Notes under the pieces: generated by a model
Seen by the model: only the letters and a program-made list of their open reading frames with translations
Databases searched by the model: none
Told to the model about the DNA's origin: nothing
Shown here: piece after piece, positions 8,601 to 50,400 of the stretch
How the letters are laid out: the number at the start of each line of letters is the position of its first letter
How positions within the stretch are numbered: position 1 is the first letter of the stretch
Translations under genes and position numbers: made by a program
Source of the DNA: Yuukianura sp. NJ FZ-2021
Taxonomy: Eukaryota
Direction of reading: 5' to 3'
Length of the DNA stretch: 64,000 nucleotides
Assembly (NCBI GenBank): GCA_046563655.1
Contig: CM102289.1
Span: forward strand, 5,952,001-6,016,000

Positions 8601-10074
8601 CAGAGCATAAGAAAGAGCTTCAGCTTCAATTTGATCACTTACAGGACCATCCAGCATTCGAATTCCTGAAAGCAGGCCAAAGGTCAAACGTCAAAGGCAA
8701 CAATTGAAAATAGGGGTGACCGACCTCCTATGGAAGCTCCATAAGCGATTCCAACTCCGCACTTTGTATTGTTTGGTTTCATAACGACTTCTCCAGCACA
8801 GCGTGTTCCATGGCTGTTTGGCGGTGTGCTACCGTAAGATGGCATCGGATCAGCCTTTTCTCCGTTTAAATCGTAGCTGATCTCTGCATTCTGAAAAATT
8901 TGCAAATTCTTTTTCAGAAAATAGCACTTCTACATTTGAAAGAAAAATTTCACCATAGTTTTACATAGTTTTGAATGAGATCTTCATGTGTGTGTTCCAG
9001 TCCGTCGTCCAGGATGAGGACGTTGATTCCTTTGCCAGTAATTCCTTCATCAAATACAGGCAGGACGTTGAGGTCAAGACGCGGTAAAGTGTTTCTGGTT
9101 CGAGTGTCATACTAAAAAAAGTCATACAAAAATCAAATGAGAAAATTGGTGTCATAAATTTTGATGGTATCAGTTATAAATAGGAAATTTTCAAATCCAA
9201 CATGCCCCGGAAAATGAATTGGACACTATTAAAATGAAGTTAAACTTGTGAATTCCTGCTCTAAAAGTGGCTTTGTCGAGTGGTAAATTTAAAAAAATGA
9301 AGTTATTTTTGTGAGTGCCATACCAAGTACCATTGCTTGTCCCACAGTTCGTCGTTGAAACGCGTTTCCCTTGGATTGAGAATGGGTGTTGCATGGATGC
9401 CACGGAGAATGCTGCCCAGTTGGAGGTCGCGGAGAATGGACTTCCAGCCGAGCTCACGCTTTTCTCGCTCTTTCACAAAAAGCTGATCAGCCCAACGCAC
9501 CTACAAATTACAAATCCAAATTCCTTTCATCTAAAAAGTTAAAAACTAAAATTTCGAAATTGGTTTTGTGGAACCACATTGACTTCAGTCAGAAACTTAC
9601 GCGACGATCTGAAGTAAGTTGTTGCGTGAGAGCTCTAGCGTTGCGATTATGCTGATTTGGATGCTTAGGGTTTTTCATACGAAAGACCAACGGAAATCCC
9701 CGGACCTATTAGACAGAAATCATTAGGTAAACTTCTCAGTTTCCGAAAAACGAAAATTAAATTGTTCGTTTTTTTTTTTGAAAAATTGTTACCGGTCCAA
9801 CATTTTCATATCCCGTTTCATTGGCCAGTTCATTGGCCTTTGCAAATCCTTCCGGAACATAAACAACCCATTCGTTGAGGTAATGCGTCGCACTTTCACC
9901 TCCGCCATGCGCATCCAGTTTTTCTTCCTTGGAAAACAGAGGTCCATAGTCTCTCTGGAGCTCTTCCAGAAACGAATCCAGTTGACCTTCGTATACCCTA
10001 AGGTCACGAACTGTCATGGCACTGACCTCTGGCCCTAACCAGAGACAACTTAAAACTAGCAAGGTCAAGTACAT
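5611..10074 (-). CDS. PCSK1: Neuroendocrine convertase 1 (PC1/3)-like subtilisin/kexin prohormone convertase, 709 aa
   Basis: 13 exons (minus): 10074-9793, 9705-9601, 9500-9324, 9111-8965, 8890-8725, 8665-8493, 8417-8205, 8126-8064, 7998-7961, 7870-7652, 6813-6659, 6237-6104, 5868-5611 (2130 nt). Signal peptide [14 protein letters not shown]; prodomain site REKR; catalytic motifs [28 protein letters not shown]-domain. PC1/3-type segments [15 protein letters not shown] and [10 protein letters not shown]...[11 protein letters not shown]. No Cys-rich or TM tail, so not furin. Confidence 0.9.
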
Positions 10075-11147
10075 TTTAAAAAAGGGGGTCAAGGGGTCAA
10101 ATGTTAAGGTCAGAAATTGAAAACGAAGAGCTAAAGTTACGTAACTAACTTTTAGATGAAAGTGAGACTATAAAATGGAGATGGTGATTCAGTGCTACAG
10201 ATTTAAAGACTATGGAAAACTAAGGTAGGAGGGTCATTAGGAGATGCATTAGGAACAGTATCTGGCAGATAGCCCCCGCAGTTCTCCCTGTTTGACTTAC
10301 CTCAAAACTAATTTACGTAACGTAGACTTCTGGAATAGAGTCATCTTGTGCCAGGGAGATTAGCATAATGCTACTCATCTCTTGTCAGATCAGAAATGTT
10401 TAGTGTCACAACTGACGATACCAAAAACCGCACGGCAAAACGTTAAACGCAAACAATGTTTTTCCATTCATTCAAAAATGAAGCCCAAATGTCCATAAAT
10501 CGATGAATGACAAACTGTACAATTTCTGTTTTTCTGTAACTTTACAGACTGCGATCCAAGAAAAAAAAACCTACGTTTTAGTCAAGTTGGTTCTGTTTTT
10601 TTTTTTGTGGACAAAATTGAAATTTTGCTGCAAATATTCCTTTAACATATACTCGACCTAGTGCATCATTTTGATTTGATTCTTTTTGTCTTTATTTGCA
10701 TTAGGGTCAGAGCTCGCAATAAGAGTTCGCTGAACCTTATGTAAACGCATCTCAGACGTTTGATGGTAACAGGGCAGGTTGAGATGAAAACATTTTTCCG
10801 GGAATTGGATTTTTTTTGAAAAGTTGAAAATGAAAAGTTCTTGAGCATTAAACGTTACCATGGTAACGAGTTTTGGGGGTAGAGACAGAATGATGTTTAA
10901 AGCTTTAAAAAACTTTCTTTTGAAAAAAAATCAGCCACTCTCAGCAGCAGTCGGACGTGTTTTTCGGAATCAGCGCTTCGTTCTGCTCCTCCTCCTCTCA
11001 ACCGAATCTACTTTTTTAACCGCTGATTTTTGAATTTTGGACAAAGAATCAAGTCTCTCCAACGCACTTCGGTACTGAAAGGCCGTTTTCCAAAAAACAA
11101 TTGAAAAATTGCTCCCATTTTTCTAACAATTTTGAATTTTTTTAGAA

Positions 11148-12723: not shown

Positions 12724-15700
12724 ATGAAGATTAGACTCATCAGTAATATTATAAAATGGAGAATCTGGACCCCCATTTCGTCCAATCCTGTTTTGATCGT
12801 GTTAATTTGGATACTAAGCTTTCCTTGCACTATAACTGGAGGTAAGTTTGTTTTAAAACTTAATAAATAAAGTATTATTTTTCTTAAATTAATTAAAGTA
12901 AATTCAATTAATTAGGAGAAATTGAATGAAGTCGTTTTGAAACCGATGTGAATGTGTTAAGTCAGGTATTTACAAAAACCACGAAGGTGGAAAATTGAAG
13001 ATGTTTTTGGTGAAAGTTGTTTTGAAATTTTGAAGTTTTGAAACTTTGAAATTTTTTGTTTTATCTGTTCGCAGAAGTGAAAATTTAGTACGACTCCAAA
13101 TGACACTACGTTTTTAATTAATTTCGATCTTTAGAAGGCTTCACTAAAGTCTCTCTTCCACTTTCACTTTGGTCCAAATAATTAAAAGGGTGAAAATTAT
13201 TGAGCTTTTTGTTCGTCCTAGTGCGGCAAAGAAGTTTAAAGGGCTTAGCGAGCTAAATTTCAAGTCAAGTTAAGAATTAACGGTCTATCTTGATTTGTGA
13301 TCTTGACTTTAATTGATTCCCTCCTAAAATTTGGACTTACTCTTGTCACCAATCTAAACGTTTCAAATTACGGGCCCCCGAAATTGTTTATTTTCATTTT
13401 AATTTAAACAGAAAAGACACAAATTTATCTCCGGCTGGCAAAAATTATCTTTCGAGGCTCTTAAACGGCTCAAATTCCACTCTCTTTGCGACGCCATTTT
13501 TGCAAAACTGAAAACATAAAATTTTGCGATACTAAAAAAGAAGACTTTTTGCCATTTTACACTCTACACAAAGTGTAGTAGTGGCCATTAACATAAGTGA
13601 TTTGTGGCACAAATCTGCATGGGAAAAAAATACAATGTGGCAGAAATTCGGAGTGCCTTTTTGCCACTGCTGTTTCATCTTACCCGGCAACCAGCAGACT
13701 ACACGACTCAAGGTTTTTTTTTTTTTCGTTTTTGCAAAAAAGAGAGAGAATGGCAAGGAAATGAGGCACTTTTGGCTCATACACTTCTTGTATGTCACCC
13801 CATGCGATTTTTTTTCTCTTTTTTGAAACTGCCGCCAGAATTTTGTGTAGCTTCCTCCATTGTCCTTTTCTTCTCTTCTTTAGACTTTGAACATGAAAAT
13901 CCGCCTCCACTCCCGTGTCTTTTCTTCTAATTTTAGAAGATCAAACTGTGCTATAGGGTTGGCAATGGGCCATCTTCTCCCGAAATCCATTCCATTGTTT
14001 TACATCTAATTCTTTACAAGGGAAATTCAACTGATATTCTTCCTCCTTCCTCTTTCAATTCTAACTTCTTTTAACAAGGAAATCTTTCTTCATTTACTTC
14101 CAAATCTCGGAAGTTTCAACGTGTAATGCTGATTTTTCAGGAGATTGTGCACAAACAATCAAAACAAAAAATTAAGTCAACAACCTTAGATAGATTTGTT
14201 TTAAATTGAAAACAGATTTCATATTTTCAAAAGAAAAATTCTTGTTTCCAAAAATGTGTTTTATTTCGCAAAATCATGAAAAAAAAGTTTTGAATTTTTC
14301 TAAACATTGCGCTTTACAAACATTGCAGAGCCGTCTGTATAGATCATCTTTAGGTTAAAAATTACCAAGTACGAGAAAAGCGTTGAAGAGTGAAAGGCGA
14401 AGCGTAGAAAAGATTTGCATTCACCTGTCAGCCACTTTTAAAGAAACGGAAGAAGCGGCGGGTAGTCCGCTAGTTCTTTTTTACTTTGCTAAAGTAACTT
14501 GGCTTCACTTCCAAATTTCCTATTAGTAGATTCAGGTTCCCAATTACTAAAAGAAGAGACCAATTTGTAAAAGTGGTCGGAATTTTAGTTAAGTGGAGTA
14601 TGTTGGATGCCAACTTATACACGAGTTTTAATAATACGTAGATGTGATGATTTGGCTCTGATTGTTTCTAGGTGGGAGTATTGTAGAAGACAATGATAGA
14701 GGTCACACAGTGCGAGCACCGTACATAGAACCTCCGCTTCAGGTCAACGTCACAGTAGCCCTTGGACAAACAGCATTCCTCAGATGTCCGGTCAAATTTC
14801 TCGGAGATAAAACTGTAAGCTATTACTATTTAACATTTACATTGTAGTCTAATTTTCATGAAAAATTTTTCCAAAGAGATAGTTTAGTCTATTTCGAAAA
14901 ACAACAATTGGATATTTCCCACAAACATTACAAATAGTTTTTTTTTAATTTCCAACAATAATACCATATTATATTTGACAAAGATATTGCAAACTGTTTA
15001 CTACACATGCGCATTACACCTTACTTTCCCGCTCTCTGTAAAATACGTTGAGCAAAATAACGCTTGGTTCTTGGATAAGGTAAGGCAGGGGCCGGACCAA
15101 AGTTGGGCACTCCCGGGCCGAAGTTCGGCATTGGTGGGCCATAGCCTGGAACTCCAGGGTATGGATATTGTCCAGACCATGGATCAAGTCCAGTCTGTTC
15201 GTTACAAGTTTCTCCCATAGATGGTTTGTAGCATCTCCATCCACAAGGTTTTTCGCCAAAGTCACAAAGAACTCCACCGTGGTAACACTGCTTCCCGAGG
15301 GACTTCGTGTAGCATTGGAATCCACAGACGTCTTCTAGGAAGTCGCACAGAATACCGCCAGGGTGACACTTCTTGGAAGAGTATTTGTCGTAGCACTGGA
15401 ATCCACAGACGTCTTCTGAGTGGTCGCATAGAATGCCACCAGGGTGACACTTCTTAAGAGAGTACTTGTCATAGCACTGGAAACCACAGGCCTTCTCACC
15501 AAATCCACAAATGACTTGCGACTGTACTAAATTTAAAAAATCATGGGTGATTCATTTTTAAGAAATCAATTTTTCAAATTACGGATTTACCGGGTTCCAA
15601 AAATGTCAACGTCAATCCGGTCAAAAGAAAAACGAAATAATTCTTCATTATGACTACGATTCTCAGCGTTCAACTATACTTTTGAAGAAATGGATTTGAA

Positions 15701-18700
15701 TTGAGATTTTATTGTCTACGAAACTCTTTCTAACTGAATTAGAGAAAACCACAAAGAGTAAACGGAAATCTGAACTAATTGCGCCAGTAATTAAAATACT
15801 TTCCAAAAAGATGGTTTACTCTATTTCTAAACAATCATTTGGCTGTTTCTCATGAACATTATGAAATGCGTCAATTTTTATTTCAAAAAACACAGCATTA
15901 TATTTGCTTTGTTATGTTTGTTAAAGTGTGGTCGTTGAAACCTTGTAGTGCGCATGAGCATGTACACCTTACTTTCCCATTCTCTGAAAAGTACGTGGGC
16001 CATAATTACTATTGGCCGGTGGATAAGGCATGGAAGTAGCCGGGCCAAAGTAGGGCGGTGGGCCAGGCATACCTGGACCATAAGCTGGAACTCCAGGATA
16101 TGGATAATGTCCAGGTCGTGGGCCGTACGGTCCAACCCCCGGACCAAGTCCTGTCGGTTCGTTACAAGTTTCTCCCATGGATGGTTTGTAGCATCTCCAT
16201 CCACATGGTTTCTCGTCAAAGTTACAAAGAACTCCACCCGGGTAACACTTATTTGCGAGGGACTTCATGTAACATTGGTATCCACAAACATCTTCTAAGT
16301 GGTCGCATAGGATGCCACCAGGGTGACACTTCTTGGAAGAGTACTTGTCATAGCACTGAAAACCACAAGCCTTCTCACCCGATCGACAAATGACTTGAGA
16401 CTGCACTAAATTTAAAAAATCACGAAATCACATTTCGACGACATTTCGATTAAAGAATCAATTTTTCAAATTACGGGTTTACCGGGTCCCAAAATGATGA
16501 ACGTCATTCCAAACAAAAGAAAAATGAAATTCCTCATCATGATTGTGACTGTGACTCTCTCAGTATTCAACTTCACCTTTGGAGAAATGGATTTGAATTG
16601 AGATTTTATTTGTACTACGAAACTCTCAATAAGTTAAAGTATCTCAAACTGAATTAGAGAAAACCACACATTTGACTTTTCAAACGGATATTTGAATTAA
16701 TTGAGTCAAGTCAATTTGTATGCGGTCACAACTTTTCGTAATATGGAAACTTTGAAGCTGGACACACGAGTTTGAAGACCAAAACTCTGAAAGTTGAGCG
16801 TTTTTGATTTATTACCATGAGTCGTACATGTGAGTACTACTACAATACATTACTTTCCGAAATTTCTGTATATCTTAGGTTAGGCTGTCTAATAAGTAGT
16901 ATTACTTGTAAGAAAAGTAACCTTGGGATTTCAACCCAACCTAGCAAATTTTAACCCTGAAGGTGAGTAGCAGGCACCGTTTGAATCGACATCTTCCATG
17001 AAATCACAGAGAATATTTCTTGGGCGGTTGCACTTTTTGGATTCAAATGCGCCGTAGCAAGTTTTCCCACAAACTTTTTGATTTGCGTCACACACAACGC
17101 CATCCGGGTGACATTTTTGGGAAAACGGGCTGTAGCATTCGTCACCGCAAGGTCTTTGCCCATACTCGCAAATGGGCTCCGATGCTAATACAGAATAAAA
17201 TGTTTTAAGTATTTCACTTTAAATTAAATTCAATACATACAGTATAGTAAAGATGATTCCGAAAGTATTTATTCAAGTACAGATCACCTTACCTTCTACA
17301 ATTCCGAAGAAACAGAGCAGCAGAATCAACCTCATCCTCATTCTGATAATAATTTGAAGTTGCGCCATGTTACACTTTGGAAGGCGTTCAGATGGGGATC
17401 ACAATTTATTTACTTTCGCCGCCAAATTATTTACTCATGAAACCACACGGAAGGAAATTTGAAATTTCAAAGAGAAAATCCCTAATTGCAAATTTAACAT
17501 GACTTAGCACGGAGATCAGCCCAATTTTTATTTTCTTTTGCTAAGTGGTAATCAACGAAGAATTTTTTTATACGAGAAACCTACCGACGGGGTACATAAC
17601 CGCAGGTCTTAATTAATCGCAACTTAATTGTTGTACCAGCTATAAACTGATTAAATATCACCGTCGGGTATCAAACTTCTTTGGCTATTTTTTTGCAACC
17701 GAAAACATACGCATGTCGTCGATTGTTTTTCTATACTCCCGTGAACAGCTGCTTCATATCCGGCTGTATCTGCTAAAAAAATGAATAAGTTGAAAATTCA
17801 ATATTTTTAATTTTTAAGCATTAAGCATATAATGTGATGCCGAAAATTTAGTTAGATATCAAGGTAGCGTACGTCTAACGTACGACCTTTAACATGTCCT
17901 AACAAAACATATATTAAGATGATGCCGAAATTTTTCTGAATTTTTACAAAAAAAAATTTCCACTCTAAAGTACGCTTGAAATTTCCGCCATTTTGACTTT
18001 ATCCAAATGTTACCTGAGTGTACGTAGAGCACTCATCATTTGAATCGACGTCTTCCATAAAATCACAAAGAATGTTTTTGGGGCGGTTGCACTTCTTAGA
18101 TTCGAATGCGCCGTAGCATGTTTTTCCACAAACTTTTTCGTTTACGTCACAAATAACATTACCCGGATGACATTTTTGGAAAAATGGGCTATGGCATTGG
18201 TCACCACATGGCCTTTGCCCGTACTCGCAAATGTGTTCGGAAGCCACTAACGAATCAAGTGTTTTAAATATAACAGTCAAAACATAATTTAAATTATAAT
18301 CTCTTCTGAAACACAGATTTCTATGCTTTTAGCAATCAACTTACCTTGTAAAATTCCTGTAAAGTATCCAACGAAGCAATACAATATTAGAATCCACTCC
18401 ATATTGAAAAGAAACTTTGCGATTGTGAGCTACGTTACGTTTTGCATTGACAGAAGACAAACACAATTTCGTCAAGTATCGCTTCAAATTATTTAAAACT
18501 TCAAACCACAAATGGGGGACGCTTGACATAAGTACAACTATAGCAAGCGTAATTACAAATTGCACGTTGCGTATAAAGGAAAGCAACGGAATTTATTTAG
18601 TCCGATTTGGCTTAGCTGCTAATTAACCCAGAATTTTTTAAAAAATATTTTATGCCGAGGTGACGTAAACCACAGGTCAGTTTTTAGTATAAGTTGACAT

Positions 18701-21700
18701 AGCTGAAACGAACGCAGCTTTGTTAGGCATTGAGTATAGGTGGGGAAAGGAAGTTGGCTGAACTTTCTAATGCCACTAGGAATGCATCGTGCGCTCTTCT
18801 CTCCCCAGGCAATCACTCCCCCCCCCCCTCCCTCCACTTTTGAATTAAACCGCTTCAGCCACAAGGTTTTAAGACGCTGAAGCTGTGTATTACTAGAAGC
18901 AAACGGCTGAGTTATGAACTTTCACTTAAGTTTTCATCAGGAACTTTTGGAGTAAGGAAAAGGCTCAGGGGCAGGAGGTTTCTAATTCCTATGATCTCAT
19001 TCTACCCCCCACCCCTACGCAACTTCCTCCCCACCCCCGTTTCTGACTTGCTTTTGACTCTTTTAGGGCTGAAGATTCTAATCCAATTGAAAGTTCCAAC
19101 TTTCTCCTGGAGAAAATTGTTTAGTGTCTGCCTATTAAGTTGAAATTAGGGGGTGGTAGTTGGGAAGGTGGAACATGGAGGGGTCAACGCCCCTACATAG
19201 TTTCTTAAACACACTCAAACATAGCCTTGACACTGGGTTTTCATATTGGATATGGTGGAATGAAGGGAGACTTTTAAATTTGGCAGGGTTCCATGAATTT
19301 TGAATTTCCGAGGGGCTGGTTGGATTTTGAACTTCGGCGGGGTTTCTCGGATTTTAAATTTTGGCGGGGTTTCTTGGATTTTGAATTTTGAGCGGGCTTT
19401 TTGTCTTTTGACAGGTGTCATGGATGCGTCGACGAGACTTGCATATTCTAACCTCCGGGAATCACATCTTCACTTCTGATCCCAGGGTCTCTCTCTTAAG
19501 GGATCGGGGGTCATGGACCCTTAAGATTCAAAATGTACAACGAAAAGACGACTCTCCCTACGAATGTCAAATCAACACAGAACCAAAGATGAGACTTGCC
19601 ATCTTCCTCACTATCATCGGTAAAGTTCTTATTTTAATGTAAAAAAGTAACTTTCTTTAAAAAAAACTTTCTCCAAAAAATTTCAAGAGAAAAAGTAAGA
19701 GTGGAATATTTAAAAAAAGCGACACCATCAAAACAAAAAAGCTTTTAAAACAACACGCTCAAATCCGTGAGAGTTCTCGCTTTTTCTGCTTTTTTTTTAT
19801 AAAAGTGAAAGCGAAAGTAGTAATGTTAACTTTAAACACTTTTGAGGAAGCGGGAGAAATTCAAAATTAGACAAACAAAACTTTTTCCTTTTCCTCACTT
19901 TTGAATTGACTCAATTTCTTCTAAACATTCTCTAAAAAGAAAATAGGATTAAACCTGGAGATGAAGCGAATGAGAACGTTTTTGTGAGAGAAAGAAGTTA
20001 AAAATCTCGCTTTTGAATTTTATTTTTTTTAAAAGTTGATGTAAAAAATCTGTTTTTACTTTTTGCTTTTTTCTAGGTTCTCAAAATGATGAGTACGTTG
20101 GGCCTCCATTAGAAGCCCAAGTAGATTACAGACTCCGTGGAAAGTCAGGTAAGAAAAATAGATACTCCTTTTCTTTTTTGTACAAAGTGAAATGAAGGAA
20201 GCAGCTTTTTAGTTCTTGTGAGAATACAGAGACAATAGAATTCAGTAGAAATATAATGCTTTCGTAACAAAGTTACTGAGAAAGTTGGTTTAATTCAAGG
20301 AGAAAGTAAGTGTCGAAGGGAAATGAATATGTAAATCTTAGCTTTCCTCTCACTGTCTTCAAATCTACAAAATCTACAAGAGTAGAAATGAAGACAGTTT
20401 TTGGAGAGAAAGAGAAAACGGAATTCAAACTTGGATTTTCAAATTTTCCCGGCACAAAAAGAGAGAAAGAGCTTTCACTCTCCTTCTGTACATGAAAACT
20501 TAATCTACTTAAACATGCCAGATTAACATCATTTTCATTCATGGCTCCAAAATTAGCAAGACTTCCATTTCTCTTTACAAAAGAGAGAAAATGCCCTCGT
20601 AAATTTAGTGTCCAATGTTTGAAAAATTTCATTATTCAAAAAAAATCTTCTTGAAAATTTTTGGAGGTGGAGAAGCCCGAGTGCTGGGTAAACCGAACAT
20701 GAAGGTCATCGCTGGCGGAACGCTCGAATTAACATGCGTAGCTGCTTACTCTGATTCGGGGCAAGTCGGAAGTGGAAGTGACCTCACGTGGTTTCGAGAT
20801 CAAACACCAATCAAACCACGGCTTTTTGGCGGCTTGGACATTCAAACTACCAGAGCGGGAACGACGATTATTTCAAAATTGAAGGTCAGCAGAATAGAAA
20901 TGTCGGATTCCGGGAAGTACTCGTGCGGTGGCACAGGGCTCCAATCAGAATCTTCCATTTTGGTGATGGTGATACAAGGTCATGGTCAAGGTCACGGAGG
21001 CCCATCTGGAGACTACGGTACGTTTGCCAAAATTTCCGTAATGTGATGAAGGGAGTAACTATTTAGCCAAACGTTCCCTTTCCAGCGCCAAGTTTTGGAT
21101 ATAATTGTGAATGCTAATTTGTGTTTCTGGTGGGGCAGGGTGTGTCGGTGGGACGAGCACCGTTTGGTGGGGCCATTTGTCATTTTTTAAATTGGGCTAA
21201 AGTGGTGTGAGGGAATTGGATAATTAGATTTTGTTCTAAAGTTTCTGGCAAGTCGTAATGGGTGACTGTGGCCATGTGCAGTTCTGGAGAGACTCCATTC
21301 TTCATAAGGAACGTTTTCCATTAAATAGGACATAACCTAACCATAGCCTAACCTAGTGCGTTGAAAGTTGAGCACGATGTTGCATGGTTGTCCACTACGA
21401 ACAGTGTAGTAAAAAGACTACTGGGAAATGAAGCTGTTAGAATTTAAATGTAGATGTAAAAGTTCCAGATGGAGATTATGGTCTTTTTCAGTTTTCCCGC
21501 CACAAAACATTTTCCCACACTTTCTCTTCTTAGTTTCACTTAATATGCATGGCACAGTTTCCCATGATTTTCTTTCCTTTTCTAAAAGCACATCCTACAA
21601 AATCGGATCCCTTTTTTGAGAACGAAAAAAAAATTACGGAATAAAATGAACTGAAATTTTCCCAGCTCAACTTTCTCTTCATGCGAAAATGTGTAACTTG

Positions 21701-26444: not shown

Positions 26445-29400
26445 TCATCTAAAGTAGTGAAATGTGAGCAGAGAAGTAGCAGTGAAAATGACAAGCGGAG
26501 ATGAAACTGTGGAAGCAATTCCATGTTCTCCATGCTGCATTGCGGCGGGATGCTCACCTGTTCAAAAAAAAATTCAATCTTTTAAAATTTTGAAAATTCT
26601 GAGATTTTAAAACAAACTTTTCAAAAAGCGGCTCAAGGTCAGCGAGAAAGAGTGTTTTCTCTACTTTAAAAAAAAACTTTCGCCTTTGCAAAAGTCAAGA
26701 TTTCCCATCGGTCATTAAAAAAAAGTTTTGTACCATGTTTACTTCACGCGCACGCGACAAAAAACTGCGCTTACTTTTTTGAGCCCCCAAAGACTGAAAA
26801 CTTTTGCAAATCCCTTCAAGACTTTTTTCTTCGGAGCTTTGTGCGAAACTTGAAAGACTAAAAGAGGAAAAGTGAAAGAGGGGAAAGACTTTGGCTAACG
26901 CCATATTTTTCAGTCCGTTACGCAGGAGCCTTATTAAAGAAAATCTTTCAGAAACTCCGGAGGAATTTTGGTTGTTACAAAAGCTGAAAAATCCTTTTCA
27001 AAAGTTTCTGCCACAACTTCAATTTGCATTTGAAGTCAATCGAAATTGGCGCGTAAAAAGTTTAAGTTAAAAAAATCTTGTTATGCTTTTGTTTGGAGAG
27101 GGAAGATAAGAAGGAGGACTTCCCCGAAAAAGAAAGGGAATTGACAGTATTGGCAACTTCAGAGTTTTGCAAAAAGAAAAGGATTTTTGGCGCACTTTTC
27201 AAAATAATGACTTCAAAAACCTCTTCTGGTTTTCTGAGAATAAGGAAAGTGGAACAAAACCAAAAGTTAGTTTCAAAAAGAAACTTTTTAAAGAGCTTAT
27301 AGGATTTTGAAGTCTACGAGGCTCTTGTTTATGCCTTGTTTACTTCTCTAATTTCTTTGTTCAACTTTCTCCAGGTGTTTCCCCTCTTTGCAAAATAAGT
27401 ACTGGCTTTAGTTTTTTGAAAAACAAAAGTTTTTTGAACCAGAAACTTTATTCAAGAAATATTTAGAATTTCGGAGTTAAGATTTGTTGAAGCAAGAAAA
27501 AATCACTTGAAACAAAGTAGTAAGCAAAACAAGAAACAACTTCTTGTGAATGCTGTGTTGTACAGATAAGCCATCAAAATTTACTTAACCGCTAAGACTC
27601 TAATAAATTTTTTTTAAATAAATAGTTTTTTTTTGTGATTTTGTGATTGATATAAGTTAAAAATTTCTTACCGTTGAGAACATGAACCCAAACGGATGCT
27701 TGATGGGCGTTGGATGGGACACAAGTATAGTTTCCGGAATCTGCGAGCGTTGCCTTGGTAACCAGCAGCTTACTGGTTGTTGCGGTATCCGTTTTTTCTG
27801 TTTCCAAGGAGATACCACCACGTGGGGAATCAAAATCGACTATGGCGTTTCCATGGTACCACGCCACGGACCCGGGTGGTTGTGACTGAATGTTGACTGA
27901 ACAAGTGAGGCTGATGGTGGAGCCCGTTTTGACGTATACGTCATCCGGCCCCCAAATTTTCGCTTGAGCTTCTAGAACAATCGCAGGCAGTTTTAGACTC
28001 GTGCAAACATATAGGCGTTTAGTTTTTAGACTTCTTGCAGTTTAGCTTAGCTAAGAAGTCAATAACCTCTCACAAGTGCAGCGTCAACAAAGAAAAAAAG
28101 GCGGCAAACAAAAACTTTAATACAATTCTTTTCACGAACTGCACTTCCGCATTTGTTCAAATACAAAACACAGTTCCCGCTTTTTCTCTTTCTTTTCTAT
28201 TGGAATCTTCCATTCCCTAAAATTTCAGAAGACAGCTTCCAGGAAGATAAAAATGTCAGCCCTGTCCTGTTTATTTCTCATTTTGAAAGGAAAGCTGATT
28301 AAGGAGAAAATTTAGATGTGAAAGCCCATGAGAAAACTTCTGAGCTGGCAGGCGGGGTGCTAGATACGCAACGGCGCCTGCAGGACGACGTTAACTTAGG
28401 TTATGTTAGAGTAGTGAGTAGCCAACTAGCACTCAGTTGCAGAAGTCATAAATTCCCGCCTTCTAATTAATCCCCTCTCTGCACAAATATTTATTTATTG
28501 CCGTACTTTCTCCAGTTGCCACCGAAGAGCTTTGATTGGTGAAAGCATCTTCTGCACTGCATTTCTCCAGGAAATGATGATCACCATCATCATCATCAAG
28601 AAGATGATGATGAGGGTTGGAGTTCATAACGCAAGGTTGTTTTGGAGAGCCCGCACTTTTCAAATTTCCCTCATGGCCACCATCACCTCATCCTGGTTTG
28701 GGGCAATGTGAGAAACTTTTCAAGTTTCCACCAGCGATGAGGTGGGGGGAAACTATGAATAATGATAAGTCATTAAGGGCCTTCTGGATTTTATTATTTC
28801 CCCAACACCATAAACACTTCTGTCTGGCTCAAGGCACACTACATCATTCACTCCAACCTAAAGGACATACGCCGCGGATGCCCAATTAAATCCAGAACCA
28901 AATTTATCACCATGGACCTGCGCCCGTCGCTGGAACGAGCGAAATCGCTGCTGGATTTTGGCGGGAGCTCCAAAGTCACTTTTTCAAAATTTGGCTCTTC
29001 GCGCCAACCATTGTCCCAAGAGCACCGTTACCCGTTGCCGTGCTTATGATGCAGAAATATGCTAAGGGTTTCCGGCCTTTCCGAAATTTTGGAGCGACGA
29101 AAAGTAACGGTTTTGGTTAGCTGCACAAACTCACCTTCTTTTCCAAAAGGTAAGAACGGCTCTTGGAGCCATAAAATCTCTCTTCCAGAAATGTTAACAT
29201 TTCCGCCAAGTTCCGCTAGGAGTGAAAAGCGCGGGCTCTTTTGAATTTGTTTTGAAATAGTTTCTGTAGCTCTTATTTCAATATTCCTGTCCTTCCTGCC
29301 GTCTCTGACCTTCTCTAGTCCACAATGGAAATCCAATTATGGACCAGGAGACCCACACATCTCCCAAAAGGCTCCCTCCAAAACCACAATCACACTAAAT

Positions 29401-32400
29401 CAAAAGAAGAAAAGCAGGTCATGGGGGTCGTGAAGAAGAAATATGATGGTGAAAGGGAAAGCAGAGAAAGTGAAAAGAGGGCTGACTGCTGGATTGAATT
29501 TTGGTCAAAGCGATTTTGAAAAAAAATTGCGCAAAAACGGCAAAAGCAATAGAAATTGAAAAAGTGAAAGTGTGAGAACCTTTTGTGGGGCGAGTGGAAT
29601 GGATGCCTTGCTCCGAAAGCATTTCACGATCTGCAACACAATCCAAAAGCAAAGAGAAAGACATGGTTTTTACTAAAGATTTGAAACAAGAAAGAGCATG
29701 CGTAGTAGTGTTGTTGAAATGCAGACTACTCAGTATTGAGGTTGGCGACCTTTTCACAAATGGGCTTTGCTTACCTTCAACATTAAGGAGCATAGCCATG
29801 TTCATCTTAGGTTCGGTATTAATTTGACACTCGTAGACGCCTTGAAAGAATCAAACAAAAGTGATAAATTTTCACATAAGTTTGATAGCTTAAACAGTAA
29901 ACTTCTTCTTGGTTTACCTGCATCTCGTTTCTGCGCAAATCGAATTTCTAAGCTCCAATCGTCAGAGTTCTCAGGATGAACAACAGCGAAGCGAGCATCA
30001 CCCGTAAACGTAAAAATTTCTGACGTTAGAACGTGAAGATCCCTTTTACGGATCCAGGAAACCTGAAAAAAAATAGTTCAAATACTTTTTAGTCTTTTAA
30101 TTTTAAATTAAAAGAAAATTTTAAAAGTGTAATGTAAATGTAATGTAACTGATGCTAGTTATCTCCTCATCTCCATTTCTATTGATCTGGCACGCGTCAT
30201 TGAAGTTGTGTATGAAAACAATCGAACTAGAAAACGTAATGTCTTTGAAAAGCACGCCGCGGTTTGTTTTTACGTGTTTCAAAAGAGAAAGTGGAAATAT
30301 TGATAATGGAATGCGCGCGTCATTTCAAATTCCTGGTAAGCCGAGGAAGAAAATAAATTGAGCAATCAAACGAGTCTATAAAAGTAATAGGAACTACGCT
30401 CTTTCGTTACGCATGCCTGAATGTTTACTACCTGGATTTTCCAAATTCCATTTTTGTTTTATCCTAACCACAAATTTCAAAGTTTTTGTTTTAAAATCCT
30501 AAAGTTTTCAAAATCCACGTTTCTTGAGATAATACTGTTTCAAGATTAAGGTTAGTGAAGCGTCTAGTTTATTAATAAAAGACGTGAGATGTGTTTTTAG
30601 TGTTTCTGTGTTTCTAAAAAACACTTTCTCTTGTTTTCCTCCTGAGTGGAGGAGTCAATGAGGCGAGGCAGCCGCTCGAAAAAACAGGAGAAAGTAGTTT
30701 TTTAGTTTCTAAAAAGTTTTTTTTTCTTAAGTTCTTTTTTGAGTTTTTTCCAGCTTCTATTCTTTGGGAGTTTGTCCATAAATTCCCGTTTGCTTTCACC
30801 ACTTTCTCTTTTTCCGTTGGAGTCGATTTTGTTCCCTAAATTCTTCCAATTGTTTCCATTAAATAATATGAGTCCTTTTCTAACAATTCCATAACTTCCA
30901 AAGTCCATTCTCCGTCTAGAATTTATCTAAGAATTCTAAGCTGTTCTAGAAACTCTGGTTCTAGAATTCCTTTTTCTTTTTGTTCTCAACTGAGGACACA
31001 AACAAAAAAACTTATGGCTGTGTCCTGGAAATGTCATCAATACTTCCAAGTCAGAGGACTTTATGGGTTGAGAGGCATAAAAAGAGCCAATGACCAACAT
31101 TACACAACTTAACCACCGCCACGGTGCTTTTCACGGTCCTATCGACTTCCCTTGAGAACCAACTCGGCCGAGAAAGTGATGTGACGACGATGGAAGTTGA
31201 CGACGATGGTCACTGGAATTTCATCATTTCTGACGGTCTTCACATCATCATTACGGTAGGTTAGGCAATTAGGTTACGTCACCAAAGTTGTCAAATCACT
31301 CATTGAACCTATATGACCCGAAAACAAGGTCATGTGAAGGTTATTTCCACTAACACCCTGCCTAAATCCGATTGTTTACGCATGAGCCTGTGCCCGCAGA
31401 TTTCAAAAAATGAGAAACGCGGGAAAAGAAAAAAATTGAATTTTGACGTAGGGCTTATGCAGGTAAATCTGGAATTTTGTTGTGTTATTTTAACCCTACG
31501 TTCTTTCGTTTTTTTTTGTTGTTGCAAAAATGTTTTTCTGGCAACTGAAAGTGTCACTTTTGCCACGGTGGAAATATTGGTCCTGTCATGTTTTCCCGTT
31601 AAGTCTCCTGGCTAAGGGAGTCGCAGAAAGTCTTTGTGACATCATCAAACACAAACAGCTCCTTCCGCTTCCTCTTTATCGCATTATGGTTCCAACTTCC
31701 CACCAACGAAAATGGCGCCCTATTCGAAAACTCTAAAGCGCCCTTTATCCTCCTCCTCCCCACCCCTCCTCCTGCTGCTTTTGCTAGCAACAGCAGTAGT
31801 ACAAGGCATTTACGGCCAAAGCTCAGGACTTTAAAGGAGTCCAAAGCTTCCTGGCAGGGTGAGGCTGTGAGCACGTAGTCTTGAATAGCATAGTCTCTCT
31901 AATCTCCCGCTTTCCGCGACAGGGAAAGTGGACTGCCTGCGGGGGAGAAAGTTCAGGAATCACGGACTCCCGGGAAGGTGTCAACTTTTGGCGGGAGGAT
32001 TTCAAATCTACTTTTGTCCCTTGACGCCCCTTGTTCTCCATCACGACGACGACCTCCCTCGCATTTCCTCTGACAGTCACAATTGTGACATAAAGTTTAG
32101 AAAACAAAACGGATCATCAACCTACAACCTACTCTTAAAAGGTTTTCATTTTAAACCGAGCTTAACCGTGTGGACGCGGGAAACTGTTGAAAATAATTTC
32201 AAATTTTGGCAACAAAAACTGACCTTCGAATTTCACGCTTTGAATAGAGAGAAAGCAAAAAGCGCTAGAATTGGAGTCGAAAACGTGGGATGTGATTAGA
32301 TATTTTGAGTTAATTTGAAATTTTACTATTGAAATTTTTTTTGGAAAAGTTCAAATTAGAGTTTGTTAAACTCTTCTGCTATTTTTGGAATTTGGATATT

Positions 32401-44400: not shown

Positions 44401-47400
44401 ATTCATTAAGGTTTTAGTTATGAGAATTTTAATCAAAACTCGTGTCTTTCTCACGATAGTGACGGCTGTAATGGCCGTGGATGCTGCTATTTCGCAGAAA
44501 CAAGTAAAAAAAATTTTTTTTAATTGATAAAAAAATAAATTTTGAAAATAAATGTTGTTAGCTTTACTAAATTCTAATTTGTAAGGACACACTGAGATTC
44601 CGTGGACGTTTACAACAATACCCGTATGAGATTCTCGAGAAAATTACATATCCGGTCCCAAGTTCAATCGTATCCATTCGGATAAACAGAATGGAGTTGG
44701 TTCCGTTGAAATTTGTCCAAGAAATAGAAAAATTTGGGCAAGTTCAAGAAATTGAGCTCGTCGATGTCGTCTGGCGTGGAAATTTTTCTGAAAAATTAAC
44801 ATTTCCGAAGTTGACCCGGATTGAAATTTCCAGGAAAAATTGGATGTTTGCGGAAAGTTCTCCAGAAGATTTTTGGGACATGTTATTTTTTACTACATCA
44901 GAAAAGGCGTCGTCTATGAACAACCTTAAAATATCTATTTTTGCTGAGCTTGGAGGTCAATTTTTATATGACGAAGGGGTGTTGGAAATGTACGAAATTC
45001 CGTATGACCTTCAACGATACTTTCCTTATACGGAGCTTATAGCTTATGACACGGTCATTGATCTGTCAACATTCAAAGGATTAGGGGTGCACGAATTCGG
45101 TGCAATGGACTCTAGCCTAATCCATGGGACGTCAGATTACTTACTACAAAAACTTGAAGATATTGTTCGGTAAGTAAACAGAATCGTAGGTATATTTTTT
45201 TTTAGAGATAGCGCACAAAATAATTATTTACTCCATGGTTTTATTATTACTGTAAGTTCGATTAATTGAGTGCAACATTTTGGCAGGTTGGATTTACGGT
45301 TTCTGACCTTTGACACGGAAACTTTATCGTACAAATTGAGTTCACTCCATAGTCATTCGCTGGAGCACCTTACTCTAATGGGTGCCCATCGTGTATACAC
45401 TGCTTTGACAATAACTCAAAGTGTTGTACAATTTCCAAAATTGGTTAGTCTATTTATTACCAGTGCAACATTGCCTACATTTGGAATCAAATCAGGAACA
45501 AATTTAACCCGCATTGGGTTTTACAACATTTCGTCAACGCGCGCAGAAAATTTTGAGTTCATGAGATCATTGCCCTTGCTCACGCGCGTAATGATCACTG
45601 GAATTCATGGGTCAGCAACTGGCTACGTGAACTTTGACCTGTCTTTGCTTCGACAGTCCAGTAATACCCTTCAAAAATTAAGTCTAGGCATTGCCAAAGT
45701 CACGCTCACCTCTTGGGATTTGACGTTTTCAAACATGAAGGAACTAGAATTGCTAGAAAATTGCAAACTGGATGGCGGAGTCAAGACGTCCTTTTCAAAT
45801 ATATTTAACACGACAAACGAAATGTATTTGGAATATCAACTTACAGACGACCTTTTGAATTCAGTACGCAATACGTCCGTGTCCACGATCTGGATCTTTG
45901 GAGTTGACCGAATTCCTACTAAATACGTTGGAGTGCAGAAATTTCTGGAACAAGCAAATGTGAAACCTGGCGCAGTTGGGGTACAATTAAAGAAAGTTAA
46001 CGACTCCTGGCAATCTATGAGAAATATTTTCGGAGAAAAAAAGAAATACGACCAAGAAGAAACTTGGTTCAATGTATACTTTTTCGGTCTTTTGGTCCTT
46101 TGCTTTTTTGGAATCTTTGGAAATGTTACGTCAATTGCTGTGTTATCAAGAAAGGCTATGATGAGTTCTACAAGTTGCATTATGATTGCCCTTGCACTGT
46201 GTGATCTTGGAATTCTCGTGTCACTTGCTGCATCTATTCCCTTGTATGGATTTAAATTGGTCACACTGTTTCCCACAATTCTGGCACTTCCGCATGAAGC
46301 GTTGGATTCATTTGCATTATTCCCACTTTTGGGAGAAAAGCCAACGGAAGTCATGCTTTCACTTGAACATTTTCAATCTAGCTACATTTATCCATTTTCG
46401 AAAACAGGTAAAGACAAAAAAATTCAATACAAATTCCGTAACATATAACGAAAATTACAAAGTGTAAATTACAGCAAATCAAGTTGATAATTTTGGCTGT
46501 TACTTTTTGGTAGCATACAGTGCGTCAATATACGTCACAATTCTGTTGACGCTTGAAAGATTTGCAGCGGTATGCTTCCCTCTCAACGTGAAGTCTTGGT
46601 CAAGCAAAAAGAAAGCAATCAGAATCTGCGTCTTGATTTTCTTTGGAGCTATTGTGATTAACTGCCCACGATGGTTGGAAAACATTGGGTCAAAGGTCAG
46701 ACTCATATTCCTAAGAACAAAGAAAGAGCTCAAAGGTGTAATCTCGAGGGACTACGACAGTGGAAACATTCTACGCAACAAATTCTACAGAGAATATTAC
46801 CATGGATACGGCTGGACAGTTCTGATGTACCTCATTCCAATTCCACTTCTTACAATTTTGAACATTACAATACTAGTTCAGGTTAGTTGACATGGGACGT
46901 TTTGAAAAATCAAAAAAATCTTGAGTTCTATGCCTTTCTTTACATTTCTTTAGGCAATAAGGTCATCAAAAACACGTGGAACAATGACCAGGTCAACCCA
47001 GGACAATGACATTGCGGCTCTTACTATGATGCTTCTCTGTGTCAGTATCTGCTTCATCTTTAGTAACACGCTGAATGGTGCCATTATTTGGTATTTTGTG
47101 TCTTTTGGAACCTATGACCCCAGAGACGTTGAAGTCTTCTCTTCTATCCCACTCATGTTCAACTCATCAACAAATTTTGTTTTTTATAGCTTGTTAGGCA
47201 AAAAATTTAGAAAGCATTTGGGTATCATGTTGCAAAAATTGCGGTGTTGGAGATGCTAATCTACTCAAAAAACTTTCGGTTAGATTTAAAAAAATTTCTA
47301 AGCTACTAAAACTAAAGCTTAGCAAGTAGAAAAAAAAGTGTGTTAATTAGAATGCGCGGTATTTGTGTTGATGAATTTAAAACTCACTCCGTTAATTACC

Positions 47401-50400
47401 ATTCGACGCGCAGCGTAAGATTTTTTAAAATGTGGTTTTCCTGGAAATTAGAGTGCTAATTTGCAGGTTATATATAACTAGAGGCAAATATCCAGTCAAG
47501 GCGATTTCAACAAAATTCATGTAATAACGATTTGCTAGTTCTAAAAACCTACCTTGTTTTAAATATTTAAAAAAGCTACTTTTTAAAAAAAAACGAGTTA
47601 TTTTTGTTTAAATTTAGTTATGATTTCTGTTATAAAAATTCGTTTCTTATTCGACATTTTGTCGATTGTCATTCTCATTGGAACAGTGGCAAATGGTCTT
47701 AAGCAACAAATGGTAATGGATTTTAAAATTTTCAGTAATTTTTGAATATAAATTGCATGTATTGTAATTAGTATCCAGAAGAAATGAGAATCCGTGGAGA
47801 ACTGCAGCAATACCCTTACGAACTCCTGGAGAAGATTGAACACAGCAATCCAGAGTCAATCAAGTTCCTTGGAATACACAAAGTGGAAATTGTTCCGTCA
47901 CAATTCACAGAGGAATTGGAGAAATTTGAAAACCTTGAAGAAATTGAACTTGTGGATGTGATTTGGAAGGGAAATTTCTCCAAAAAGTTAACTTTTGCGA
48001 ATTTGAGCAGAGTAGAAATTTCCAGGAAAAATTGGTCATTTTCCAATAGTTCCGCAATTGAATTCTGGGACATGTTGTTTTTCACTTCGCCTGAAGAATC
48101 TATGACCCAAGTTACAATCTTAATTTTCGCTGAACTTGGAGGGCAATTTTTCTACGACGAAGAGCATTTGGAAGTTTCTGAAATTCCTTATGACCTTCAA
48201 CCATACTTTCCTCATAAGGCGGTAAGCGCTTATGACACGGTCATTGACCTATCGAAATTTAACGGATCAGGAGTACTGGATTTTGCGGCGATGGATTCTA
48301 GCGTTGTTCATGGGACCTCGGATGATCTGCTAAGAAACCTTGCATATATTGTTCGGTGAGTAAACATTGTTTTATTAAAATTGCTAATATTATTTAGTTA
48401 TATGTAATTTAGAATGTGTTTTTTAAGTTTGGAATTACGTTTCTTGACCTTCGACGACAAAATTTTATCATACAACCTTGCCTCTCTCCATGTTCAGTCG
48501 CTTGAATCTCTCGTCCTAGTTGGCGGGCGTCGCGTATATGCTTCACTAATACCGACTCGTAATTTAATACATTTTCCAAAGTTGACTACCTTTATGGTTA
48601 CAACTACGGTACTCTCAACGTATGGATTAAAATTTTCTGATACAACGTTAACGACTATTTGGTTGTATAACATCACCTTGGTGAGCAAAACTGATCTGGA
48701 CTTTATACGGTATTTGACCTCGCTCAAATCAGTTGGTGTCACAGGATCTGAAGCGTCAACAACTACTTACGTGGACTTTGACCTATCACTGCTTCAAATG
48801 TCCCGCAAAACTGTCTCTACATTATTTCTTCAAATGAGCAAAATCACAGTCACAACTTCTGATTGGGAGTTTTCCAATATACGGTCACTGGAAGTGGTAA
48901 ATTGCATTTTAGACAGCGCCACCATGAGCTCATTTTCGAACATTTTCTATCAAACAGAAAAAATGGGTTTCGAATATCAACTAACTGATGAGCTTTTGGA
49001 TTCAGTACTAAATACTTCCGTATCGACAATTTGGATTCATTCAGTCAATAAAATTTCTACGGAAAATGTGAGAGTGAAAATTTTTTTGACTCAAGCAAAT
49101 GTTGAACCTGGTGCAAGCAGGGTAGAGCTGAAGAAGGTCAATGAGTCATGGACAGCAGTGCAAAATATATTTGAAGAGAAAACAAACATTGATCGTGAAG
49201 AAGCTTGGCTCAATTTCTACGTTTTCGGTCTTATGATTCTTAGTGTTTTTGGAATTTTTGGAAATGTCATGTCAATTGCTGTGTTGTCTAGAAAGACAAT
49301 GATGAGTTCTACAAGCCGTATTATGATTGCTCTTGCCCTTTGTGACCTTGGAATACTCGTGTCACTTGCTGCATCAATTCCTCTGTTCGGATTTAAACTG
49401 GTCACGTTATTCCCCGAAATTCTGGAAGTTCCTTATGATACATTGGATTCAGTTAAATTATTTTCAATTTGGGAAGGACATCCGATTGGTCTCGTTCTTT
49501 CTCTTGAACGATTTCAATCCAGCTACATTTATCCAATATCGAAAACAGGTAAAACAAAAAAAAACATATAAAATGTTTAATTTTTATACTCAACCGCATT
49601 TGTCGTTGGTGTTTCTGTAGCATACAGTGCATCAATATACATTACGATTCTACTGACGATTGAAAGATTTGCAGCAGTATGCTTTCCTCTCAAAGTGAGG
49701 TTCTGGACAAGCAAGAAAAAAGCAACTACAATGTGCATCTTGATTTTCCTTGGAGCTATTCTAATCAACTCTCCAAGGTGGCTAGAAAACATTGGGTCAA
49801 ATGTCAGAATTATTTTCTTGAGGACAAAGAAAGTATACAAAGGAGTCATCTTAAGGGACTACGATGGACCAAATATTCTACAGCACAAATTCTACAGAGA
49901 GTATTACCATGGATATGGCTGGACGACACTGATGTACCTCATCCCAATTCCACTTCTTACAATACTTAATATTACGATACTGGTACAGGTGAGTGAAGCA
50001 GCTAGAAACATTTTCTTTGTAATGTTTGAATATGCTAAACTTAAGTTTTCTATAATTACCTAGGCAAAGAGGTCAGCGAACACGCGAGGAGCAATGACAA
50101 GGTCAGCGAGCACGCGAGGGGCAATGACCAGGTCAGCGAGCACGCGAGAAACAATGACAAGGTCAACACAGGACAGTGACATGGCTGCTCTGACTACGAT
50201 GCTTCTATGCGTCAGTATGTGCTTCATCTTTAGCAACGCTGTCAATGGTGCCATACTTTGGTATTTTGTGTCTTTTGGAACGTATGACCCCAGAGACATT
50301 GAAGTCTTCTCGTGTATCCCACTCATGTTCAACTGCTCGACAAACTTCGTTTTCTACTTCTTGTTAGGCAAAAAATTTCGAAACGAATTGGGTATCATGT

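Follow-up and report, generated by a model that had tools for sequence, protein, structure and literature searches.

A gene cluster in the arthropod Yuukianura sp. NJ FZ-2021 encodes putative secreted four-cysteine repeat proteins distantly related to the fungal CBM52 module

Four head-to-tail genes, here called A to D, on the minus strand of a 64-kb stretch of the genome of Yuukianura sp. NJ FZ-2021 (GenBank GCA_046563655.1, 98.7 Mb in 22 contigs; contig CM102289.1, positions 5,952,001 to 6,016,000; the whole stretch is hereafter the window) encode putative secreted proteins built from tandem copies of a unit of 26-28 residues with four Cys. By sequence criteria the four are intact, functional genes, and their unit is homologous, at the superfamily level, to the CBM52 or Carb_bind module (PF10645), two units equalling one module. 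The family is best described as a divergent, unit-repeated CBM52 variant in an arthropod, and as part of a wider, mostly unannotated repeat superfamily. We propose, with a confidence that falls a little short of even, that A to D bind polysaccharide of microbial walls, probably β-1,3-glucan, in a multivalent and non-catalytic manner.

The gene models bear out the original prediction of four head-to-tail genes at exactly 15021 (stop codon of A) to 18402 (ATG of D), each with a leader exon and a phase-1 intron [Table 1]. Exon 1 (49-58 nt) encodes a hydrophobic leader, called signal-peptide-like by eye; a single GT-AG intron follows (64, 77, 108 and 98 nt in A, B, C and D, respectively), and exon 2 carries the Cys repeats. 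The predicted products of 187, 164, 100 and 101 residues hold 16, 12, 10 and 10 Cys in their mature, exon-2-encoded part, the numbers first proposed, while the signal peptides of C and D contribute one extra Cys apiece. A pattern search of the window recovered 11 complete units (four in A, three in B, two each in C and D) and none outside the cluster; the 100 shuffled windows averaged 0.01 units and never contained more than one. Identities of 80% between B and A and 79% between C and D, against 44% for B/C and 39% for B/D, confirm the two subfamilies.

Within this common plan, A acquired its extra unit (unit 2) when 81 bp were duplicated internally (86 of 100 bases identical). In C and D the ten Cys make up two full units followed by half a unit in which Cys1 and Cys3 alone are retained, and unit 1 of D has CH in place of CY. 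A and B carry basic, Pro/Gly/Tyr-rich C-terminal tails of 55-59 residues (isoelectric point, pI, ~10; net charge about +4 to +5) that end in Gly-Lys-stop, an amidation-type ending. C and D are tailless and acidic (pI 5.7 and 5.2), their mature chains of ~80 residues being free of low-complexity sequence. In the tail of A, a dibasic site precedes the last 12 residues (window 15024-15062, minus strand), and release of a short amidated peptide from this tail is conceivable; the Gly-Lys-stop ends of A and B lie at 15024-15062 and 15972-15990, respectively, on the same strand.

The cluster represents, as judged from these comparisons, a genuine and old family of predicted secreted, disulfide-stapled proteins that has undergone tandem duplication. 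The ratio of nonsynonymous to synonymous divergence (dN/dS) is 0.095 between C and D, 0.215 between A and B and, in four comparisons that involve paralogues, 0.15-0.20, at a dS of 0.4-1.2, indicating purifying selection in all six; in unit 2, 14 consecutive residues are invariant across C, D and two dispersed paralogues at a dS of ~0.9-1.2. Three protein searches of the genome, whose member counts are lower bounds, placed at least four further paralogues on the same contig, all with a leader exon and a phase-1 intron. Two are C-type (6.07 and 8.13 Mb), one is long (7319380-7320650, minus strand, three exons, ~13 units) and one has ~5 units and a GC-rich exon 2 (about 9646760-9647430, minus strand, at 9.65 Mb). 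Contamination is ruled out because the genes are spliced, lie inside an intron of an animal immunoglobulin (Ig)-domain gene on a 10-Mb contig and have dispersed paralogues.

Three metagenome contigs (L037-L039) contain intron-bearing relatives 42-47% identical to the ~5-unit paralogue, from which it follows that the family also occurs in a second eukaryote, which is probably a related animal; a leader-exon, phase-1 model was built by script for one of the three and the junction was seen by eye in the other two. One of these relatives adjoins a UDP-glycosyltransferase. A metagenome scan with the C-type alignment returned no relative among 167 candidate stretches. Two other candidates were set aside as non-members: a lectin/sushi-type exon matched in the genome search (contig C3, L025), and Cys modules beside a GH184 lysozyme (L036:3775-4540, plus strand) that consist of a different, six-Cys unit and reach at best E = 0.6 with the family profile.

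The relationship to CBM52 was examined in the wider family. A two-unit profile of 16 own-genome segments was compared with 1.84 billion representative proteins (E ≤ 1e-3), and the best 150 of 296 relatives were examined. Among these 150, 62 match PF10645 at E ≤ 1e-3 and 39 reach its Pfam gathering score of 25 bits, the cut-off also used for IGFL (PF14653), while four match IGFL and two Galaxin_repeat. In all 12 strong PF10645 proteins that were inspected, PF10645 and the family profile fall on the same stretch of residues, and a chytrid CBM52 module is composed of exactly two units. Against six distinct chytrid modules, hhalign gave a probability of 96% (score 41.9 over 48 columns; 100 Cys-fixed column shuffles reached at most 23.6 and the reversed alignment 9.1), and 69% when window rows only were used (score 25.5 over 42 columns; shuffle maximum 19.8). 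The long paralogue is the own-genome member nearest to Carb_bind (PF10645 E = 7.6e-4), and paralogue E scores 20.1 and 17.7 bits per exon, below the cut-off. Four CBM52 motifs, namely CG, LCPx, ACYS and YxC, are listed in a preprint (10.64898/2026.05.09.718313). CG is found in all 11 complete window units and CY in ten of them, the exact ACYS occurring only in the half unit of C; CP is present in paralogues E and H.

A number of findings weigh against a CBM52-type, glucan-binding reading. The PF10645 search gave no match for A and B, and its scores for C (10.8 bits, E = 0.6) and D (7.7 bits, E = 5.9) lie below the cut-off; for C, IGFL (E = 0.084) is a better match than Carb_bind. LCP occurs in no window unit, LC, IC or VC being present but never with Pro next to it. 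None of 10 pattern-matched window units has YxC, which occurs in 34 of 77 units of strong PF10645 proteins and in 27 of 411 units of other matches; if its Tyr stacks against sugar, its loss may mean that glucan binding was lost as well. The chytrid modules were retrieved with our own family profile, and the hhalign result is therefore supportive rather than fully independent. No glycoside hydrolase fusion was seen in any of the 150 relatives. A bacterial genome, finally, holds a relative (L026) amid genes that by eye seem ordinary bacterial ones, and the module need therefore not recognise glucan everywhere. The predicted likeness to CBM52 thus holds as homology at the superfamily level, as seen with profiles and hhalign, and fails as membership: with scores below the Pfam cut-off and two of the four motifs lacking, the proteins are CBM52-like rather than CBM52. 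Alignment-based homologue searches retrieved four and six proteins and no named Dikarya CBM52, so that Eng1, NCW-3 and GBP were never aligned; a word-index search with gene A produced no candidate, and Atlas leads, which had low scores only (0.77 and 0.76), were discarded.

Structure prediction is in line with a repeat of small hairpins. The Cys domain of gene B, modelled by AlphaFold with 62 sequences (mean pLDDT 85.6, pTM 0.61), comprises ten short strands in consecutive hairpins, and the model of a PF10645 member has the same strand pattern, the two being compared by pattern. The top two PDB neighbours, both weak (Z 2-4), are the same for both models, namely granulin and ZCCHC4. The fold comparison proposed at the outset thus yielded a confident hairpin stack yet no significant PDB match: a PDB sequence search gave none, Foldseek against PDB and viral models none at E ≤ 1e-3 and VIA-align none at Z ≥ 5, which does not imply a novel fold. 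Sequence and fold searches found no solved CBM52 structure. Among the relatives, Cys3 is lost in ten units that keep Cys2 and Cys4, and Cys1 is also lost in eight of these ten (p = 4e-4); the reverse test, for joint loss of Cys2 and Cys4, gave p = 0.018 on few cases. From this co-loss and from the half units of C and D we infer Cys1-Cys3 and Cys2-Cys4 bonds, each unit probably consisting of two β-hairpins.

That the family works like CBM52 is moderately probable. After secretion, 2.5-4 units would form a protease-resistant rod on which each unit shows one or two aromatic residues; this rod would bind repetitive microbial wall polysaccharide, most likely β-1,3-glucan. Action would require no catalysis and would resemble that of GBP, fungal walls being coated or loosened either inside the gut or at the surface of the body. 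In A and B, the basic Pro/Gly tail, which may be amidated, could add an effector or anchoring function. GBP of Magnaporthe, a stand-alone CBM52 protein, is reported to bind β-1,3-glucan, the walls of the knockout being less open to glucanase (10.1101/2025.07.03.663104). Glucan binding by the CBM52 of Eng1 is cited second-hand in two other papers (PMC6980582; 10.64898/2026.05.09.718313).

The proteins could also be secreted for a structural or adhesive purpose, as parts of cuticle, egg coat, glue or matrix, with the hairpin rod serving as a spacer or cross-linked scaffold of the galaxin type and the tail as a cross-linking segment. This would account for the Pro/Gly/Tyr-rich tails of A and B, for the absence of the YxC aromatic and for those relatives whose long arrays contain more than 80 Cys, hydrophobic segments being present at the C terminus of some; the two weak Galaxin_repeat matches also fit. 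We nevertheless regard this function as unlikely. A to D have no di-cysteine motif, the hallmark of galaxins (PMC12773714). Moreover, C and D comprise only ~80 residues with no low-complexity part, and constraint on one unit is stronger than a spacer needs.

Alternatively, the proteins may be directly acting antimicrobial peptides, either pairing a Cys-rich module with a cationic Pro-rich amidated tail, as in the logic of penaeidins, or giving rise to repeat-derived peptides as in squid galaxin. The genes are small, secreted and duplicated, the tails of A and B are positively charged and end in Gly-Lys-stop, that of A with its dibasic site before the last 12 residues, and a common upstream 8-mer presumably resembling a Runx/Lozenge site [see below] would suit such a role. 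Single squid galaxin repeats are reported to inhibit bacteria (PMC12773714). We find this function rather unlikely, however, given that C and D are acidic and tailless, that evolution has been purifying rather than diversifying and that the Cys spacing is unlike the collembolan diapausin, Alo and defensin motifs presented in PMC10051947.

A protein-binding role, as an IGFL-like factor or as a protease or hydrolase inhibitor inherited vertically from an old eukaryotic stock of Cys-hairpin repeats, appears quite improbable to us. It draws on the IGFL match of C, on the best two-unit family-profile match (P0018), which passes the IGFL cut-off, on the fusion of the module to astacin in tardigrades, and on GBP, which is a protein-interaction target as well. 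Against it stand the 62 Carb_bind versus four IGFL matches among the best 150 relatives and a unit number that ranges from 2.5 to ~13 within this one genome; such free variation fits multivalent polymer binding.

Most of the best 150 relatives are repeat-only, many with a leader; fusions are to astacin (two), CBM96 (two), a carboxypeptidase-regulatory domain, SH3 and MORN. In two Hypsibius astacin metalloproteases (P0004, P0027), C-terminal arrays of the family repeat comprise up to 15 profile stretches. A taxon look-up of 30 of the best 150 yielded 11 named relatives, four tardigrade, two bdelloid rotifer, four dictyostelid and one chytrid, and no arthropod, insect, crustacean, nematode or vertebrate name among those 30. 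When the 150 are ordered by their best two-unit score, dictyostelids take places 5, 6, 14 and 25, a rotifer place 27, a tardigrade place 30 and the chytrid place 126. In a tree of 73 rows and 53 columns, restricted to segments of at least 45 profile positions and, for unnamed matches, of at least 40 bits, 37 of 70 inner branches are unresolved, and the Yuukianura genes join neither the chytrid nor one another; A and B are placed beside a tardigrade protein (98/99), a grouping that involves long branches and is not to be trusted. The tree, taken on these terms, points to no donor.

Horizontal transfer from a fungus, the source originally envisaged, finds no support in this distribution, the nearest relatives being dictyostelid, rotifer and tardigrade, a bacterial gene existing and the sole named fungus ranking so low. 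Such a transfer is improbable in our estimation, even though CBM52 has been described from fungi (10.64898/2026.05.09.718313 and PMC6980582), one chytrid protein has modules of exactly two such units and the names looked up include no insect, crustacean, nematode or vertebrate; the own genes did not group with the chytrid, in a tree in which most forks are unresolved. Two other origins agree with the data at least equally well: acquisition from an amoeba or bacterium, which we entertain as a tentative possibility, and patchy ancient retention, to which we give roughly an even chance. More speculatively, and with odds that we regard as low, CBM52 may be the fungal case of a pan-domain disulfide hairpin repeat of 27 residues that soil animals feeding on microbes (this arthropod, tardigrades, bdelloids) took from soil microbes and employ as a hitherto undescribed class of secreted multivalent β-glucan lectins or wall-looseners, and that is here co-regulated via a shared upstream element. 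Animals would then have a system for recognising fungal walls apart from GNBP/GH16 and Dectin.

The 8-mer TGTGGTTT is invariant ~100-125 nt upstream of the ATG in six of six short paralogues, which may point to common regulation. The window contains 11 copies where 4.5 are expected, and seven of the 11 lie in or just upstream of the cluster, two of these within coding sequence; in the C-type genes the 8-mer is followed by a GGCGGCGA-like box. We take TGTGGTTT to resemble a Runx/Lozenge site.

All four genes lie antisense within a single intron of a plus-strand Ig-domain gene. At least two Ig-domain genes, which we presume to be DPR-like, face one another in the window (14662-21043, plus strand, and 27595-29850, minus strand), the first being the host of the cluster. 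Further along, a tandem pair of long leucine-rich open reading frames, each followed by a G-protein-coupled-receptor-like exon (44571-50060, plus strand; labels from reading), may encode receptors with a very long N-terminal extension. An open reading frame at 9760-10167 (minus strand) presumably corresponds to the leader and pro-domain of a furin/prohormone-convertase-type protease. Elsewhere in the genome, three GH16 matches lie above cut-off (C8:2000417, C4:3949895 and C2:2007141) and may be glucanases or proteins of the GNBP type.

Table 1. Features of the repeat-protein cluster and its surroundings (window positions unless a locus is given)
Feature	Position	Strand	Remarks
Host intron of Ig-domain gene	14815..19414	+	GT..AG, phase 0, 4.6 kb; from junctions; downstream exon V-set E 7e-6
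Gene A exon 2	15021..15526	-	Four 27-residue four-Cys units 15189-15512, tail 15024-15188
Gene A exon 1, start codon and signal peptide	15591..15648	-	Gene model
TGTGGTTT, 98 nt upstream of A start	15746..15753	-	Invariant in six short paralogues
Gene B exon 2	15969..16405	-	Three units 16149-16391, Pro/Gly/Tyr tail ending Gly-Lys-stop
Gene B exon 1, signal peptide	16483..16540	-	Gene model
TGTGGTTT, 121 nt upstream of B start	16661..16668	-	Same conserved 8-mer
Gene C exon 2	16931..17184	-	Two full units 17015-17173, half unit (Cys1, Cys3) with CBM52-type ACYS
Gene C exon 1, signal peptide	17293..17341	-	Alternative in-frame ATGs 17335, 17368
TGTGGTTT, 99 nt upstream of C start	17440..17447	-	Same conserved 8-mer
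Gene D exon 2	17999..18246	-	Two full units 18074-18232, half unit
Gene D exon 1, signal peptide	18345..18402	-	Gene model
TGTGGTTT, 101 nt upstream of D start	18503..18510	-	Same conserved 8-mer
TGTGGTTT upstream of two further short paralogues	L015:5971-5978; L016:5115-5122		

A literature search at the level of titles and abstracts (hyphenated spellings such as CBM-52, subscription journals and preprint supplements lying outside its scope) found no description of the family in animals, and CBM52 discussed for fungi only; likewise, family terms do not occur in three supplementary files published with the Folsomia candida genome (PMC5490193). The surprise is limited by the fact that Pfam already tags some proteins of the tardigrade or rotifer type with the module and that foreign genes are common in springtail-like genomes. 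As animal proteins of 80-160 residues, confidently folded in prediction and easily expressed, the family members make glucan binding outside fungi, and the need for the YxC Tyr, testable. If they do bind, fungivorous soil arthropods would possess a means of binding or loosening walls that has gone unrecognised and that would serve digestion or immunity, and a function could be assigned to hundreds of hypothetical proteins of amoebae, rotifers, tardigrades and bacteria.

Compared with known systems, the four-Cys unit differs from collembolan diapausin, Alo knottin and defensin, whose motifs have six Cys (PMC10051947; compared by eye) and which give no Pfam match here. The four-disulfide knots of Acanthamoeba Leo, which link short loops and are described as genus-specific (PMC11423589), were set apart by description. 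Granulin (PDB 6cku), the top match of both models, shares the disulfide-held stack of β-hairpins (Z 2.9, root-mean-square deviation 3.8 over 49 aligned residues for gene B; Z 3.7, 3.4 and 46 for the PF10645 member), although Z is at background level and no Pfam match accompanies it, which makes this a general architectural analogy. Galaxin (PF24748) and IGFL likewise have secreted Cys repeats, with a CG...Y.P....C core and weak cross-matches. A to D differ from the former in containing no CC (the di-cysteine hallmark noted above) and gave no match to its profile, the genome-wide search being silent, as were its controls; from the latter they are separated by scores below 25 bits (C 13.4, paralogue E 14.5).

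The same four-Cys unit is found in repeat proteins of dictyostelids (DDB_G0269420, PPL_04718), bdelloids (Rotaria, Didymodactylos), tardigrades (Hypsibius, Paramacrobiotus) and the bacterium, which often combine a signal peptide with 2-4 units and are at most ~45% identical to A, but in which no Pro/Gly tail was noticed; nearly all are hypothetical or uncharacterised, apart from two tardigrade astacin fusions and one automatic Tenascin-X label. With CBM52/PF10645 as found in the S. pombe Eng1 module and Neurospora NCW-3, A to D share CG, CY, Cys spacing, predicted β-hairpins and secretion, and two of their units align over one module length. They depart from it in scoring below the cut-off, in having no LCP or YxC, in arranging single units in tandem rather than as a paired module, and in being found in an animal and not on a GH81 glucanase. 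GBP (MGG_05232, Magnaporthe oryzae) acts on the fungus's own wall and is known to bind glucan, whereas A to D are likened to it by domain and description; it is, like them, a small secreted non-catalytic protein whose sole named domain belongs to this superfamily.

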